From Chrysomallon squamiferum (Eukaryota; Animalia; Mollusca), in contig CM022679.1 of assembly GCA_012295275.1 (NCBI GenBank), positions 20,398,001-20,462,000 of the forward strand: 64,000 nt of DNA. Direction: 5' to 3'. A program made the position numbers and the translations under genes. This document shows positions 19,837 through 53,456 of this stretch, piece by piece. The notes beneath the pieces were generated by a model that did not search any database, was not told the DNA's origin, and worked only from the letters and a program-made list of their open reading frames with translations. Position 1 is the first letter of the stretch; the number at the start of each line of letters is the position of its first letter.

Positions 19837-19931
19837 ACAAGTCTGCACCCCAGCCCCCAGGCAGCAGTCAGGGACCTTTGGGGTTTTTTGTACCCAGTCC
19901 GTATCCTCCATACCCAAATGGCACATCTATG
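19837..19931 (+). CDS. Tcf: TCF exon (95 nt, phase 1 to 0): DKSAPQPPGSSQGPLGFFVPSPYPPYPNGTSM
   Basis: TTTTTCAG acceptor and ATG|GTAAGT donor; GC-rich island; SPY..PNG resembles the TCF region that follows the beta-catenin-binding domain. Confidence 0.88.
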
Positions 19932-27949: not shown

Positions 27950-28195
27950 ATGATCTATTACCTTAGCCGTCACTGGGGGTCGGGGTCAGACCTCCCTCAG
28001 CTCTCAGGGCCAGTCCACAGTCAAAACAATAATAGCGGGAGAAGTTGGAGGGATGAGGCAACCCTCCGAGGCCTCAATTCCTCTGATCAAAGCAAAGCTA
28101 TGTGCTCTACCTGTTCTGGACTTATTGCTTTGGAGAAGATGCCATTGTGCTGCCTATATCCCGAACCATGTACCTTGGGATGTATTTTCGATATG
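27950..28195 (+). CDS. Tcf: Candidate alternative (first or cassette) exon, 82 codons MIYYLSRHWG...GCIFDM, in frame with the exon at 34703
   Basis: GC/CpG-rich island. The frame is open from 27833 through the donor, and ATG|GTAAGA at 28196 falls in phase 0, matching the next exon. No homology recognised. Confidence 0.45.
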
Positions 28196-28485
28196 GTAAG
28201 AAAACGAGTCAGTTTAATTTACTTTTTAATTTGGGAAATGTTAACTTTTTTAAATTTTATTTTTAAAAAATTTTCCTATCTGTTTAGTTGCTTCAAAAAT
28301 AAGATAGAATGAAAAAGAAAAAAAATGAAAAAATACCTGCAGAAAAATTAATGTGTTTCATTAATGCACCATATCAATGTTGTGTAAATAATTTATCAAA
28401 TATATAATAGTTTTTGTATTTAGTAACATTTGTGTTGGTAATATTTAGTTCTATAATATTAATTATTTATGTTGGTCTGGTTTAA

Positions 28486-28900: not shown

Positions 28901-31900
28901 TTTATTGTTTTTTTTAAATGTAGGAGTATTTCCAAAATAAAAGTTTTCAAAGTTTATATTAACATTCATATATAACTTTTATAAAAGTTAATAAAGAAAA
29001 TGTCTGCATTGGACTATTTCCTAATGGTGTCATGTAAAGGAATTCATGGCATTGTTGCCAGGCGCTGGGTAGCTGGCATCTGACATTATTTACTGGAGAT
29101 GGGCGGATGGTTGGCAGTGGCCACCCATACTTGTTTTCACAGAAGATACTTAGTTCAGTTAATGCATTGCTTACTAAAATTCTAGGAGGTGTGAATGCTT
29201 GGAACATTGAAATTCCTTACTGACTTGAGTTCAGGGATTTTTATCTCCTATCTTTTGGCTTTTCTAAAGAAAATCCACACAGGCTTGGCCTTATGAATTC
29301 AGTACAGTCCATATTCTCTAGCAGATAACTGTTGTACCCCTGCAGTCATTTGCTTTGATGGACGTGTGTCACAGGGGAACAGTCCAATATTTAGGGGAGT
29401 TAGGTTTTTGCTTATCAGTGAAAGTCTTTGAGAAAAGTTCTGTTATCTTGCATAATAAAGTGTGGACTGTTAGGAAATATTCCTGATAGGTATCAGATAT
29501 TAATAGGCACTGACCAGATAATGTATTGACATTTTGGAAATATCTGTTTTCATCCCACACTTACCTTTGTCACCTGAGCTCAGCCTGTTCCAAGTGCCAA
29601 GAAAATTTTCATTTTTGTCATGCTCTGTAAACTTGACATGAAACATCAATATCCATTGCAAAGAGTGATTAATGGTCATGTAACCACACAAAAAGTGAAC
29701 AATTCCAGGCGCCTGTTTTCACTAAATCTCTTTGATATTAATTTTTGGCAGTGTAATGGCCGTTTCTTGTTGAAAATAAATGTTTTCTTGCACTCAGCAA
29801 CAGGCACCTGGGGTCAAGGGTCATTGGTTTAGGTTGCATGTTTATATTGCCCATTGAAAATAAGTACTAGAAAACCCAAGTTATGCATATTTACTTTTGT
29901 GGCAGATGCTTCCAACCTGGAAGACTCAGTGTATTTGTATACTAAAATGTTAAAATAATCCTTTTTCACAGCTTCTTAGCTTCTTTTTCTTGTTTTTCTC
30001 TGTTTCTGCTCAGGTGTCTGGTAAAAATTTGACATTCACTTTAAGAAAAAACCCATTAAAACATTCCTTCAGTGTATAGTTTCTAGAAATTGAGTAAAAT
30101 TAAAATTAAATTTATGTTACAAAACTGGAGGAGGACCTAGAAAAAAGTTTTAAAACTAATAATTAATCATTTGTTGCTTATTATTACAACATTTTCTCAT
30201 ACTTTAAATTTTAATTATTACCCTTCTTTTAAAACATTTTAACAATTTTACTTATCCTCCATTTTTTTTATACATGTTCTCATTTTCATTTTTCTATTTT
30301 CTTTTTTCTTTTTCTTTTTTTTTCAAATTTTATTTTTCAATTTCATGGCTGTGTAAAATATTTCCCAGGCAGACAGGTGCACATTTGGTTCACATGAATT
30401 ATAAAATTTATTAAACTTAGGTTTCCTGTGACATTGTTCACATTGATTAAGGCATTTTGACTTTGAAACAGGTTTTAATCTGAAGGTCCTCAAGTCAATA
30501 AATTCTTTTATAAATAAGAGAGACAAAATACCATTGAACTTTTTTCTTTCTATTTAAATATATAAATAAAAATCATTTCCATATATTTTAATCCATTTCA
30601 TTTGTTTTTAAAGTTAATTGTTCATATGTGTGTTGTGTATGTGTGTGTGTGTGTGTGTAAATAATTTAAAATGTTATTAATAAACAGAATATTTCAAACT
30701 TATTTTTTCAATATTAATGGTTCCAAAAAGCTACAGAAAAAATGACTGAAAATATGTCTCTTCATGGAGGTGGGAACATCATTAGGACTAATTCAGACAT
30801 TTTTATAAAATAGCCAGTGTATGGACCCTGGATAAACATGTGTATTTTTTTTGTATCTCTCTCTCTCTGTCTCTCTACTTTTTGAGAGAGAAAAAAATTC
30901 TTTAGAGGTATATTTATAGTTTAACATCATTTACATGTAAGAAATCAATACCATCTTGGATGTGTATTGTTCAATGTAAAATAAGTAACTAATGAACTAA
31001 CAACAACTTTGAATTATTAATTACATAATTCTGTCCATCAAAATTAAAAAATCATAATGACTTAATTTATTAGATATCTAAGCATAGATTTTTATGTAAG
31101 TTCCTTAGTTCACCAAAGTTTGTTCACAAATACTATTCATATTGAAAACAATTATTAATATATTATTATTAGTAATAGTAGTAATGGTAGTAGTGGTAGT
31201 ATTTATTTTACAATTTATTTATCATTATTTTATTTTTTATTTTTTTGAAATTGATCAATAAAATTAATTCAGAACCATGAAATAAAATGAAAATATAAAG
31301 GAAAGATGATAACTGTTGCAGAAGATACTTCTTCATTCACAATGGAAAATAGATTCCTTCTCAAAGAAAGAATCTAAATAGACATTACTTGGATTAACAT
31401 TAATAAAATGTAACAGTTAAGAAGTTATAATAATAAATGAAGGTAGTAAAATAACACTTTTTATTGTTTGAGATTAAGAAGAATTATTTTAATGTATGGA
31501 CAGACTGAATTGTAAACATTGTAAAAAAATATATTTATTTTATTGGAAAGTAATTACAGCATAATGAAATGACATTATTTTGGTTAAAAAAAAAAAAAAC
31601 TCAATGAGATTTATCATTAAGATTTTAAACTAAGAAACTATGAATTGATTTTTATATTTTTAATCATTTTAGAAATCCATATTCTTTCTATGATGTATCA
31701 TTAATGTTTCACAGATCTTGTTTGTGAAATGTAATAATTTGAAATCTTTTACTATTTGGTCTAAATAAATTGTGTTTGCCAACACACTTGTGAGCTGAAT
31801 GGTCTTTTAACTGTCTATAACATCGCAATGTTTTCCCTGACACATTCATGAGCTTCTTTCCAATGCCATCATTTGCACTGGTTGTTTCAGTCCGCATTCA

Positions 31901-34702: not shown

Positions 34703-34814
34703 GGAAGCAAGCTGGGATTGGTTCAGCCTCCTTACCCAGGGTTGGTGATGGAGTTCGGCACCCCTCCCCCAGCACACATGGGTATACCTCCAATACACAC
34801 AGACGCCAAAACAG
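34703..34814 (+). CDS. Tcf: TCF exon (112 nt, phase 0 to 1): GSKLGLVQPPYPGLVMEFGTPPPAHMGIPPIHTDAKT(G)
   Basis: CTTTTCAG acceptor and CAG|GTAACT donor; PPPAHMGIPP..D.KTG is a conserved TCF motif. Confidence 0.95.
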
Positions 34815-37404: not shown

Positions 37405-38031
37405 ATTTTCAGATAGTTTTCACTGATTTCTATTTATATTTGGTGTGTATGTATTTTTAGGGCAGGAAGCCAACAATTTAGGCAAGCCCTGTATTTGTAA
37501 GATGAAAATCTTAGTTTCTTTTCTCTTCTCAATTTTTTATTTTTTTTTTTTTTTAAACTTAAAAAATCCTATTTATATAATATATAGAAATGTATCCTCT
37601 TTGCTTTTTGTTCTTTTTTTCATATCCTCAGTCTACTGTGAATGACCTGTGATTTGTTTTGTTAAAAACACACACACACACACACACACACAAAAAAAAA
37701 TAAAAAATAAATAACAACCTTTGATTTTTGTGTAAATGTGAATGTATATTTATAAAAGTAAAAATAAACAACTGTCAAGTTAATTGATCTGGTACTGACC
37801 CCTGGCTAAGTTTTTTGTTTTCAACTTGTGGGACATCACAACTTATTAAGTAATACTTTATAATGGTGATTTTCTTCAAAGCAGGGCTAAATGGGATATG
37901 TGGACACCAAGCAAGTGTCAAAATGTCTGTTTTTTATGATTGTTTCTCTTTAACTTCTTAACAGGGCATTTTCATTCAAATTAACTTTCGAAAATTTATC
38001 CAGGTTCCATAATGGTAACAATCTTGGGGTT

Positions 38032-40180: not shown

Positions 40181-40271
40181 GGTTACCCCGTCCGCCGATG
40201 TATGCATACCCAACTCATCCTGGCCAGTTTCCTCCACATCTATACGGTCCAGAATTATCATCTGTGCATTG
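40181..40271 (+). CDS. Tcf: TCF exon (91 nt, phase 1 to 2): GLPRPPMYAYPTHPGQFPPHLYGPELSSVH(W)
   Basis: Strong pyrimidine tract plus CAG acceptor and TG|GTAATA donor; G.PRP motif of the TCF context/Groucho-interacting region; phases fit both neighbours. Confidence 0.93.
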
Positions 40272-44325: not shown

Positions 44326-44618
44326 TTGAAATAATAATACATGAGTCTGTTATGGCAGTTACTAATTTTCAGAGGTTTCTGAGATTTAGTAGTGTTGTTG
44401 TTGTTATTTCTCACATACTGCTCTTTTTTAGAAACTAAATAGTATGCAAATACATCAAATTCAGTATTTTATTTTTTATTTATTATTTTCCATTATAAAA
44501 ATCGGATACATTATTCAGAAATAAAATTTACCTATAATTCCAAAGTTTTGTAACATTAAGAACTTTATTGTCATCATCATCATCATATTATTATATATTT
44601 AATTTTTCTTTCTAACAG

Positions 44619-44831
44619 GCATCGGCCTCCAGGGTATCCCATTTCTTCAGGTGCCTTTTCCAGTTCATACACACCTTTAATAAACTCTAGTATATCACGG
44701 TTTGGTCCTCCTGGGCTCATACCTCACCCAGGCATGCCTCCAGGGCTTCCTCCTTCCTCGGTCCTCAATCCTGGAATGAAACAAGAAGCTGGCATGGGAA
44801 TGCAGCCCAGTATGTGCCAAGACAGCCAGAG
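44619..44831 (+). CDS. Tcf: TCF exon (213 nt, phase 2 to 2): WHRPPGYPISSGAFSSSYTPLINSSISRFGPPGLIPHPGMPPGLPPSSVLNPGMKQEAGMGMQPSMCQDSQ(R)
   Basis: CTAACAG acceptor and AG|GTGAGT donor; YPI..G.F, SRF.P and PG.KQE features typical of the pre-HMG region of TCF. Confidence 0.93.
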
Positions 44832-45418
44832 GTGAGTTTATTGTGTTTCAAATGTGTGTGTGGGGAGGATATTGATTGGTCATAATGACAATCATAATTG
44901 AATTTTTTTTTATATATATAATTTAGAAGACTAATGTTAATCTGATTTTGTTTCAGTTATTGTCATTACTATGAACATTTTATAATTAAAATTTAAGTTA
45001 TTTTTTTCATACGTCTTGTGTTACAGGTTACTGGTGATAGTATCATGTTTGACACCAAAAATCTGAGTCTGTTTCCATTACCAGCCTCTCAGAAGGAATT
45101 TATAAAATGTTTTCTTATTTCCAGTGAAGCAAGTTTCCAATGACAGAAAGTCTTCAAGAAAGTGCAGACATTTAACACCTATAACCAGTGTTAATGTTAA
45201 CCAAAGTAAATTACCTACAGATCGCAGTGTATAAATGCAAATGTGTCTTAAATGTTTTATCAACTATTTTCAGTTTTTGTTTTTAATTGCTCATAATCAA
45301 TTCTATGGTAAGTATGGGCAATTTCCAGCATGCATCCCTCGGAGGACTGTTCACGACCGGTAGATTGTTCCAGTCACCAACATCTACAGCTTTGTAATAA
45401 GAAATGATTTATTTTCAG

Positions 45419-45605
45419 GCATGGTGGGTTGAATGATCAGCAGAATTACCAAACAAATCAAAATACTGAACCTGTGAAGAAAAAACCACATATAAAGAAA
45501 CCATTAAATGCTTTTATGCTGTTCATGAAAGAAATGAGGCCCATGGTCATTAAAGAATGTACACTACGAGAGTCGGCAGCTATTAACCAAATCTTAGGTC
45601 GAAGG
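45419..45605 (+). CDS. Tcf: HMG-box N-terminal exon, copy A (187 nt, phase 2 to 0): [63 protein letters not shown]
   Basis: TTTTCAG acceptor and AGG|GTATGT donor; unmistakable TCF HMG sequence. Confidence 0.96.
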
Positions 45606-46362
45606 GTATGTCCACCATGTTTGGTTGCCGAACACACAAAGTCACAACTCATGCTGCTGGGTAGTTTTTGTAACAGAAAAAAAAATTTGATTGTGCAGTT
45701 GGTTTTCAATTGTCAAAATATTAATTTTCTTCAAAAAAGTTTAAAAGAATAAGAAAGAAAAAGCAGGTGTTTTATTGTATTTCTTTGCTGGATGATGAAT
45801 TATCCATTTTGATACAGTTTTGACATTAGTCGCGGTCACATTAGTTTGAAACAGGTTTGTGTGAAGAGATAATGAAAGGTTGGAGGTTGTTTAGGACACA
45901 GCTCTTTGTTTTGTTATGTAGAGCAAGCATTTTATATCATTTTTGACATTTCTCCAAAAACCAATGCCAGTTGTGAATCTAGATTAATAAACCAATGAAA
46001 CAAGTTTTGACAAAGCACTGAACAGTTTTTAAGTTGACACTGAATCTAATTTTTCAGCTTAAATTTTGACAGAAAAGTTTAAAAAAGAAGAGTATTTATT
46101 TAGGTGTTTTGGGGGTTGTTTTTTTGGCAATATCAAATAAGTTGAAATTAATATTTCAAAAGAAACAGTATATGAAAAACAAAATTGCAAAAAGTTGAAA
46201 TTGTTCAAAATGGATAAAAGAAAATAATACCTTTTACAATTTGGCATCTAAATGAAATAATCTGACACTGAACTCCAACTGTGCAAGCAAACATCAGATT
46301 TTTCATTAACTGTTTAAAAAAGTGAACCAGTCTCGATAATGGGTCGTTTTAACTTGTTTCAG

Positions 46363-46543
46363 GTTGCGTAACTGCGATCAAGAGCTAAGTCCTAACAATA
46401 CTCAAACACCAAAGAAGAAGACACAATATATTAAAAAACCATTAAACGCATTTATGATATTCATGAAAGAAATGAGGCCTGCTGTTCTGGCCGAGTGTAA
46501 GCTTAAAGAATCGGCAGCGATTAACCAGATTTTAGGTAGAAAG
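46363..46543 (+). CDS. Tcf: HMG-box N-terminal exon, copy B (181 nt, phase 2 to 0): [61 protein letters not shown]
   Basis: TTGTTTCAG acceptor and AAG|GTAAGT donor; intact paralogue of copy A with the same phases. Confidence 0.95.
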
Positions 46544-46574
46544 GTAAGTGTTCATTTTGTTTATCTTTGCATCC

Positions 46575-46765
46575 CGTGCAAAATGAATGCAGTCCAGTGC
46601 AGAGTGAAAAACATTCTTCTGCAAAATTAAAACAGTTTTAAGAGAAATGAAAAAGTGCAGAATTAATAAACTCTTGTGCTAAATGAAAACTTTATTGCAG
46701 AATGAATGCAGTTCTTTGAAATAAGGATGCAGCTTTGTGCAAAATGAAAAAATTTTGTGCAAACT
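46575..46765. repeat. Degenerate minisatellite of about 20 bp (GTGCAAAATGAA core) just downstream of HMG exon B
   Basis: About 9-10 recurring TGCA(A/G)AAT(G/T)AA-like units. Confidence 0.75.
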
Positions 46766-47442
46766 CTAACTACTCAGCAAAAATCAGTTGGGGCTTTGTG
46801 ATGTCTGATTTTTTTTTATTGTTTGATGGCATTATTAAGTCTTAGGAAAAGGAAAAATTCATATATATATCTTTTTTTTTTTTCCCCAAATATTCTTTAT
46901 GAAGTGGAAATTTAAAAAGTGATTTAGAAAAATTTAAATATGATCTATCATGATGATATTTAAAATTGGTTTCATAGACTGGTTTTAAAGATATTTTGTG
47001 TTAGCTTATGATCCACTGTGAAAAAGTAAAAGAGTTTCTGTCCTGTATTTCAGTGACACATTTATATATGTCATTAAAACCTGTAAAATATTTTATTACA
47101 TAATGATATACTTATTCATTAAAATTTTAAACAAGTTGAAATTTGTTGCTGGTAGTTTCACATTCCACTTATTTTAATTGATAATTTTAAGTTTAAAAAA
47201 ATAAACAATTTTAAATTAAACAACTATTATTAAATGCAAAATTAAAACAACCTTTTTCAAAATTCATTTAGTTAATTATTTTCTTGTTTTTGCAAAATAA
47301 CTGTTAATGTATAATGAATAAAGCTATCTGCAAAATAAACACCTTTTCTTAGATCATTGCTGTAATTTTTTTTATTGTAACTTGCATTGGACAGAATAAT
47401 TAAAAAAAATCCTTGATAACAGTGGTGTATTGAATTTTTCAG

Positions 47443-47614
47443 TGGCATGCATTAGACAGAGCGGAACAGTCTAAATATTATGACATGGCACGAAAAGAAA
47501 AGGAATTACACTTACAGCTGTACCCGGGCTGGAGTGCCCGTGACAACTATGCCTCTCACAACAAGAAGAAAAAAAGAAAGAAAGAAAATACAAATGAACC
47601 AAGAGGCATGAATG
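47443..47614 (+). CDS. Tcf: HMG-box C-terminal exon plus basic tail (172 nt, phase 0 to 1): [57 protein letters not shown]
   Basis: TTTTTCAG acceptor and ATG|GTAGGT donor; canonical TCF motif [11 protein letters not shown] and basic NLS. Confidence 0.97.
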
Positions 47615-47718
47615 GTAGGTTTGACAGTCCATCGGAGTAAATAATGTGTGAATCAAATTAACAAAATGTATCATATTCAGAAACATGGATCACTTGAATT
47701 AAAAATGTATTTGTAAGT

Positions 47719-49786: not shown

Positions 49787-49865
49787 CAGGTGAATGTACC
49801 CAGGCAAAGAAGTGTCGTGCTAGGTATGGGATGGAGCAGCAGACTCAGTGGTGCAAGCCATGCAG
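49787..49865 (+). CDS. Tcf: C-clamp exon (79 or 76 nt, phase 1 to 2): (A)[25 protein letters not shown](R)
   Basis: Pyrimidine tract plus CAGCAG tandem acceptor (start 49787 or 49790) and CAG|GTAAAT donor; CRAR[FY]G...WCxxC signature. Confidence 0.96.
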
Positions 49866-51168: not shown

Positions 51169-51250
51169 ATCACTGCATGAGTCAAAGTGTCAACTTGCAG
51201 AGACTTCTGCTGATTTAGAAACGAAAAACACCACCAACTTATGATAGTAA
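51169..51250 (+). CDS. Tcf: Candidate alternative stop-containing exon (RSLHESKCQLAETSADLETKNTTNL***)
   Basis: CTCTTATCTCTTTTCAG acceptor. In the C-clamp frame it ends TGA TAG TAA, with donor-like GTAAGG (51247) and AAG|GTATCT (51252). Confidence 0.4.
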
Positions 51251-53065: not shown

Positions 53066-53456
53066 AAGGAAGAAAAAATGTGTTCGCTATAAAAGAGGAG
53101 AAGATGCTACGGGTAGTACAGATGGGGAAGACATGGATGATGATGATGACGATGATGACGACGTATGTAGTGATTCACTGCGGTCGGGAATGGACAGTGA
53201 TTCCGCGGCCGGCAGTCCACTACCCACATCTCATGGCGAGAGTTTTCATATCAACTCGGACAATTGCCAAGAATCACGACTCCACTCCTCCCCATTTCTC
53301 ACCCACCAGAAGGATGAACTGTCACACAACATGGACAAAATCCTCGACTTTCACGAGGGCAGCAAACTGTTCATGGAGCTGCCGCGGCACATGTCATCCA
53401 AGCCAACAGTGCCTAATAATTGTTCTCAATCCAATGTTCAGCAGATCTCTATATAG
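53066..53456 (+). CDS. Tcf: Last coding exon: RRKKKCVRYKRGEDATGSTDGEDMDDDDDDDDDVCSDS...NVQQISI*
   Basis: CTCTGTCCAG acceptor; completes the C-clamp (RRKKKC) in phase 2; TAG at 53454-53456; GC-rich coding-like composition. Confidence 0.95.

Follow-up and report, generated by a model that had tools for sequence, protein, structure and literature searches.

In invertebrates, TCF is usually regarded as a single protein whose HMG box does not vary. Alternative 5'-HMG exons have been described for Pdu-Tcf of the annelid Platynereis dumerilii, where, according to the available text, both HMG variants were amplified from cDNA together with the C-clamp (Zidek, Machon and Kozmik, 2018; PMC5996498). The anatomy is the same as that of the locus analysed here, namely two alternative exons encoding the N-terminal half of the HMG box and one common exon encoding the rest, and the annelid Tcf precedent mentioned in the initial annotation of this DNA proved to be real. 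However, Platynereis belongs to a different phylum, and the available text of PMC5996498 deals with the anatomy rather than with exclusivity, mechanism, homology to other animals or isoform function. The same two exon types, PHI...GRR and PYV...GKK, are found in abalone (e.g., A-type XP_046380327.1 and B-type XP_046380325.1), and both types with the same flanking exons in the annelid Owenia fusiformis (CAH1794789.1 and CAH1794791.1), in which the Tyr copy comes first. The isoforms of Owenia and of Haliotis rubra, H. rufescens and H. asinina (RefSeq pangolin/TCF7L2) are database predictions. Tandem exon duplication likewise diversifies half of the HMG box in pangolin of insects and crustaceans and in Octopus, scallops, Dreissena and Lineus; in these alternative HMG-C systems, by contrast, the variable half is the C-terminal one, with helix 3 and the basic tail, while the locus here has a single C exon.

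The arrangement of alternative HMG-N exons is thus in print for Platynereis, and RefSeq already contains B-type isoforms of three abalone species. In the literature covered, with most subscription papers outside its scope, only the Platynereis paper describes such exons, and neither a mollusc study, a cross-phylum comparison nor a duplicate exon of vertebrate LEF1 was found; the available portions of PMC5740500, PMC6783274 and PMC8651982 contain nothing on mollusc exons or cross-phylum homology. What is added here is the breadth of the arrangement across lophotrochozoans, a His/Tyr mark of the two copies, the faster change of the second copy in this lineage and two predicted stems that would silence it. 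The importance is limited by the Platynereis precedent, and the functional difference between the two copies is putative.

The TCF gene and its duplicated HMG exon

The window, i.e., the whole stretch of 64,000 nt that was analysed and in which all positions are counted, contains a TCF/pangolin gene which begins before the window and ends at about 53456. Its HMG box is of the TCF/LEF type, with the Pfam HMG_box split over exon A or B plus exon C and with LEF1 as the sole PDB match (2LEF, E 2e-13), and it is followed by a basic tail and a C-clamp (basic run in exon C, CRARYG exon, RKKKC at 53066). Identity to Gigantopelta aegis pangolin amounted to 98% for exon A and 82-100% for the other exons, so that the host is probably a snail closely related to G. 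aegis but of another species. Residues 1-72 of the Gigantopelta protein had no tblastn match in the window, and the beta-catenin-binding exon is outside it. The features of the gene are:

19837..19931, + strand, TCF coding exon, covering Gigantopelta residues ~73-105 (tblastn 91%; splice sites)
34703..34814, + strand, TCF coding exon, PPPAHMGIP region (tblastn 92%)
40181..40271, + strand, TCF coding exon preceding exon U (tblastn 100%; its end matches the loose end before exon U in 3/3 RNA runs)
44619..44831, + strand, exon U, constitutive, before the duplicated pair, ends in phase 2
45419..45605, + strand, exon A, linker and HMG residues 1-39 with His at position 1 and GRR at the end, main form (joints U>A in 3/3 and A>C in 1/3 RNA runs; 98% to Gigantopelta RefSeq)
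46363..46543, + strand, exon B, linker and HMG residues 1-39 with Tyr at position 1 and GRK at the end, probably the minor alternative (joints B>C and A>B, each in 1/3 RNA runs; Pfam HMG_box; Haliotis B-type isoforms)
46369..46371, + strand, TAA, stops translation two codons into B when A and B are both included
47443..47614, + strand, exon C, single HMG C-terminal exon with basic tail
49787..49865, + strand, C-clamp exon (CRARYG...CKPC)
53066..53456, + strand, last coding exon, remainder of the C-clamp and tail (tblastn 82%)

Further variants of the gene are visible outside the duplicated pair. An alternative first coding exon without the beta-catenin-binding domain lies at 27950-28198 (88% to Gigantopelta isoforms X3 and X4) and would yield an N-terminally truncated, possibly dominant-negative TCF; a similar Cys-rich stretch is also found in a Bulinus model. 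A short optional exon at about 37461-37495 corresponds to the 12-residue insert of some Gigantopelta isoforms, read-through past the exon C donor (47615-47640) meets a stop at 47638-47640 and gives a form lacking the C-clamp, comparable to Platynereis X7, and an alternative last exon near 51169 (51169-51244) truncates the C-clamp, comparable to Gigantopelta X5.

Exons A (187 nt) and B (181 nt) both have AG...GT ends and run from phase 2 to phase 0. The initial annotation had given these lengths, ends, phases and coordinates correctly, with the small correction that the exon upstream of A starts at 44619. In the 38 residues that begin with IKKP and close the exon, A and B agree at 31, with exactly the seven differences it had claimed, and 86 of 114 nt are identical. 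The many synonymous differences it had noted are borne out by 13 of the 31 common residues, at which the codon differs. Over the 38 codons pS was 0.71 and pN 0.125 (Fisher p 4e-8), and the resulting dN/dS of about 0.06 sums the constraint on both branches since the A/B split rather than describing the present-day function of B. The duplication is old, and both exons are intact and have been under purifying selection since the split, as had been proposed. Pfam HMG_box positions 1-38 are matched by A and by B, in both cases above the curated cut-off, and exon C supplies positions 39-69; tblastn with 8 TCF proteins gave two HMG-N matches and one HMG-C match in the window, in line with the description of the C-terminal HMG exon as single. 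The frame is kept in U-A-C and in U-B-C. Early stops follow in U-A-B-C, two codons into B, and in U-C, after three codons of C. With regard to splice sites, B has a perfect donor (AAG/GTAAGT) and an acceptor with 13/20 pyrimidines; A has the donor AGG/GTATGT and an acceptor with 9/20.

An assembly artefact, which the initial annotation had already held to be unlikely, or an allelic duplicate is practically out of the question: the nucleotide identity comes with near-saturated synonymous sites, contigs from the RNA runs contain A joined to B, extend through the introns on either flank and show B spliced to C, and tandem copies are found in many other species.

Splicing of exons A and B and the probable choice between them

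Five sequencing runs contain the stretch, four of them, from one study, labelled RNA; three of the latter (X1, X2 and X3) and the run X5 were mapped on 44610-47640. X5, which is not labelled RNA, gave short repeat-like matches only and left the exons uncovered. In the RNA runs unspliced intron was present, and exon C was uncovered in X1 and X3. When joints were scored at exact splice sites in assembled contigs, U>A was seen in all three RNA runs (contig depths 33, 172 and 32), A>C in one of three (X2, depth 166), B>C in one of three (X2, depth 25) and A>B in one of three (X3, depth 6), these depths being one value per contig that cannot rank the forms. The U>B and U>C joints were seen in none of the three runs, in assembled contigs which drop rare joints. 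Upstream of B, the B>C contig of X2 continues as intron; the A>B contig of X3 keeps the B-C intron and is possibly a splicing intermediate. As an explanation of the X2 contig, transcription from a promoter within the A-B intron was set aside: the ATG at 46339 is out of frame with B and its frame stops at 46369.

It follows from the joints that both ends of B are recognised in splicing and that A and B can be included together. The claim that both copies are used in splicing is supported by these data, and of the four junctions listed in the initial annotation 44831>45419, 45605>47443 and 46543>47443 were seen, while 44831>46363 was found in 0/3 RNA runs. Inclusion of A+B, or of neither exon, leads to an early stop; the strict exclusion implied by its term 'mutually exclusive' was not directly visible in the RNA, with the A>B joint in 1/3 and U>B in 0/3 runs. 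Strict exclusivity and a productive B mRNA are likely in this snail.

We propose, with a probability of roughly 0.7, that A is the main form and B a minor, mutually exclusive alternative, that RNA pairings probably repress B and that NMD likely removes the out-of-frame combinations. A U>B>C mRNA would be made at low level, as in the abalone and Owenia models, double inclusion of A and B would leak and then be degraded, and the two proteins would bind the same TCF motif with differing affinity, bending or cofactor contacts. The frame test, the dN/dS of 0.06, the RNA joints, the abalone and Owenia models, the Platynereis cDNA and the retention of the invariant HMG positions support this proposal, as do the better splice sites of B and, as described below, the predicted stems that beat shuffles and a 14-mer of annelid-like loci. 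Against it stand the U>B joint in 0/3 runs and the fact that the X2 B>C and X3 A>B contigs, read literally, equally fit U-A-B-C, as well as the A-only isoforms of Gigantopelta (5/5), the drift of B from abalone (9/40 differences as compared to 2/40 for A) and the three residues of B seen in 0/211 other HMG-N strings.

Alternatively, B might act in this lineage as a poison cassette which is added after A, so that the stop two codons in exposes the mRNA to NMD and lowers TCF output. The fact that the sole B joints are A>B (X3) and B>C (X2) would agree with this, as would the position of the stop at 46369-46371 far upstream of later junctions and the lack of a B isoform in the Gigantopelta RefSeq set. 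However, the first codons would suffice for such a function, yet B has an open HMG frame with all 15 invariant residues; moreover, the A>B contig retains the downstream intron and may be an intermediate, rare joints are dropped by assembled contigs, and the models of relatives splice B alone. We consider this alternative unlikely.

As exclusion mechanisms, the available text of PMC6071210 lists a short intron, a U2/U12 clash, NMD and competing RNA structure. Steric exclusion is out for A and B, as the A-B intron has 757 nt, the nearest upstream AG is at -34 and the A>B joint was observed; it may operate in several relatives, where the gap between the copies is about 25-80 nt. Incompatibility of U2 and U12 sites is out as well: compared with the U12 consensus, the donors GTATGT and GTAAGT and the AG acceptors belong to the common U2 type. 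The early stops of the A+B and skip forms are compatible with NMD. B has better splice sites and yet is seen less often, which suggests repression of B, and the main/minor proposal holds that B would be off by default, with stem S1 looping it out and stem S2 covering its 5' end; such silencing would explain why the better-spliced exon is the rarer one. The predicted elements are:

45636..45678, + strand, predicted stem S1, 5' arm, immediately downstream of the A donor; pairing with 46754-46800 would loop out B
46754..46800, + strand, predicted stem S1, 3' arm, downstream of B
45877..45922, + strand, predicted arm of stem S2, within the A-B intron; its pairing partner, which it would cover, is the first ~45 nt of B
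45314..45353, + strand, predicted stem S3 arm upstream of A; pairs with 46704-46742

S1 was predicted at -38.9 kcal/mol (1/109 shuffles as low) and S2 at -37.4 kcal/mol (0/200); in a global fold of 45560-46850 the outer helices of S1 and the core of S2 were kept in both the MFE and the centroid structure. For S3 the values were -33.0 kcal/mol and 3/174 shuffles, and degenerate TGCA-rich repeats of about 35 nt just downstream of B (46577-46751) may inflate its predicted pairing. Altogether three of eight region-pair duplex tests beat local shuffles, two of these stems being such that they would silence B, and the other five were at chance, among them the pair that would loop out A (72/168 shuffles as low). 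It speaks against the RNA-stem part of the proposal that the stems were tested after their discovery, that 2/27 same-length real control blocks of the window equalled the best energy, and that the A-looping stem did not exceed chance. Among 11 variants in the runs one fell on an unpaired S1 position, none in S2 and one, in a single run, on a paired S3 position (45346). No gastropod DNA other than the window was recognised among the 80 metagenome loci. The motif TGCATG is absent from the region, and GCATG occurs only at 45328 and 45419. The two-exon cluster of srp exon 4 (PMC6071210, available text) likewise has a pairing from just after the first exon to downstream of the second exon, which loops out exon 2; by contrast, the counterpart looping out exon A is at chance here, an intron-to-exon stem lies on B instead, and the stems of the window are predicted. 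The A/B pair also offers a small, self-contained system in which to study the way RNA structure and NMD may separate duplicated exons.

Two nested stems are also predicted within the A-B intron (45799-45825 with 46193-46218, and 45685-45716 with 46262-46292), one of them nearly perfect over 24 bp; they would shorten the intron. The strongest control-block duplex, -41.7 kcal/mol with arms about 220 nt apart, lies at about 29560-29800 and is possibly an inverted-repeat element in a TCF intron.

Beyond the window, four annelid-like loci have an invariant intronic 14-mer complementary to the acceptor of the first copy, 380-600 nt upstream of it, with two one-sided changes which keep G-U pairs and no two-sided change (pairs assigned by eye):

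L059:1259-1272 region, annelid-like 14-mer element
L072:684-697, annelid-like 14-mer element
L074 ~1909-1922, annelid-like 14-mer element
L080 ~918-931, annelid-like 14-mer element

In the tree described below, L059, L072 and L074 group near Helobdella, and L080 is not part of it. This conserved complementarity suggests that RNA pairing may act on the exon pair elsewhere, through a different element. By eye, the 14-mer could also pair inside the second copy in the three loci having one, resembling a docking site.

Differences between the two HMG versions

Using LEF1 numbering with His as position 1, A and B differ over HMG positions 0-39 at nine sites (0, 1, 11, 19, 21, 22, 25, 27 and 39). At 15 positions 211 other distinct HMG-N strings show no variation; B retains all of these, and the chance of seven changes avoiding every one is about 0.03; the initial annotation had likewise noted that the recognition residues (NAFM) are kept. 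From the LEF1 structure we take N7, F9, M10, E28, S29 and N33 to be the DNA-contacting residues, all of which are retained in A and B. The same holds for M13, a DNA-contacting residue given as M14 in the available text of PMC13152641. Since the DNA-contacting residues are kept, the core motif of A and B is probably the same, and the two proteins likely differ in affinity, bending or cofactor contacts, by way of the linker, position 1 and the helix-1/loop residues 19-27. Effects on cofactors are possible because the HMG region of LEF1 makes a weak contact with Groucho (PMC2701438, available text).

In vertebrates the available text of PMC9303524 gives positions 2, 20 and 22 as paralogue-diagnostic for TCF7, LEF1, TCF7L1 and TCF7L2. 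These correspond to positions 1, 19 and 21 here, all within this exon and all different between A and B (chance about 0.009). In contrast to the exon choice considered here, the vertebrate set stems from whole-gene duplication, and the residues are different; the overlap may merely mark sites that tolerate change. If B is productive, Wnt output in this snail would be tunable at the DNA-binding domain itself, and knock-down and reporter studies in molluscs would need to be isoform-aware.

The His or Tyr two residues before KKPLNAF is the one A/B difference common across lineages, whereas most of the seven differences noted earlier, in a comparison that just excludes this residue, are confined to this lineage. 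B has drifted further than abalone B, with Ile11, Ala19, Leu21 and Lys25, and differs from it at 9/40 positions as compared to 2/40 between A and abalone A. Ala19, Leu21 and Lys25 occur in none of the 211 other strings, and Lys25 stands where 207 of them have Thr. These unique residues fit specialisation and relaxed constraint alike. It is conceivable that B was once functional, is now under relaxed selection and is heading for loss, as perhaps happened in the lineages in which a single HMG-N version was seen among the listed isoforms, namely Mytilus, scallops, Dreissena, cephalopods, Liolophura, Patella, Lingula, Lineus and Tubulanus. The faster change of B and its three residues unseen elsewhere would be expected under such decay. 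However, B shows neither stop nor frameshift, has strong splice sites, is spliced to C in RNA and has its invariant sites intact, and the predicted pairings are aimed at B. Absence from annotation is also weak evidence because the B exon of this very lineage is itself unannotated in Gigantopelta. Decay of B appears quite improbable to us.

Tandem copies in relatives and their origin

All five Gigantopelta aegis RefSeq isoforms contain A only, B being unannotated. In the Haliotis cluster a B-type exon is present in 6 of 15 members and in three of four species (H. rubra, H. rufescens and H. asinina, not H. cracherodii), and in the gene models it follows the same upstream exon without an exon in between and continues into HMG-C; the Owenia models contain both exon types, with the B-type joined directly upstream. 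Tandem HMG-N copies are also seen in Elysia, Bulinus and Ostrea models and in the ORFs P0001, P0201, P0479/P0002 and P0204; five of the 80 metagenome loci have them too, many of the remaining loci being short, spliced or arthropod-like. Two HMG-N halves within one protein occur in P0202 and six other Ostrea edulis isoforms and in P0199 and P0200; these models, in which a short intron is read through or both copies are joined, are likely annotation errors or retained-intron products.

Among 14 tandem pairs of known order from gastropods, oysters, the annelid Owenia and further contigs, the window included, Tyr at HMG position 1 is in the second copy in 12. The exceptions are the Owenia model, in which the Tyr copy is first, and P0204, with His in the second copy; in the tunicate Styela, the single HMG-N that was observed carries Tyr. 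The Owenia and Haliotis copies were assigned to A or B according to this residue and not according to their order. In a tree of the HMG-N part (41 columns, 46 rows) A of the window groups with Patella and abalone A. B lies on an unstarred branch (89/88) with all 13 Tyr copies from paired sets, a branch which also holds four first copies and five other rows. The nearest starred partner of B is Macrostomum, probably a long-branch effect. In the annelid-like loci the A and B copies group together. Tree tests rejected neither a single B clade nor a pair of A and B of the window (p-AU 0.34 and 0.37).

The duplication likely predates, or coincides with, the split from abalone, and one origin for molluscs and annelids is plausible. 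On the question of origin only, several independent HMG-N duplications in gastropods, oysters and different annelids, with a convergent Tyr, are somewhat less likely than not. The Tyr-first order of the Owenia model, the His in the second copy of P0204 and the Tyr in the sole HMG-N seen in Styela would agree with independent events, as would the clustering of A with B in the annelid-like loci; moreover, His to Tyr is a one-base change, and the HMG-C exon has been duplicated in several lineages too. The position of Tyr in the second copy in 12/14 ordered pairs argues in the other direction, together with the placement of all 13 paired-set Tyr copies on one branch, albeit unstarred and shared with four first copies, and that of A of the window with Patella and abalone A, in a 41-column tree which rejects neither history.

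On the assumption of one origin, we tentatively suggest, at less than even odds, that a single duplication before the mollusc/annelid split endowed lophotrochozoan TCF with HMG N-termini of two types, His and Tyr, between which RNA structure would choose while NMD removes wrong combinations; this would be part of an in-gene TCF 'paralogue set' of protostomes with tissue-specific targets. If true, protostomes would repeatedly vary the vertebrate paralogue positions inside one gene, when the HMG-C duplicates of arthropods, cephalopods, bivalves and nemerteans are taken together with this pair.

As to the HMG-C exon, two or three tandem versions were seen, besides insects, in isoforms of Octopus, scallops, Dreissena and Lineus (proteins P0013/P0010, P0071/P0158, P0297/P0354/P0355 and P0040/P0182) and in metagenome loci, among them a Dreissena-like one (L001:2406-5600).
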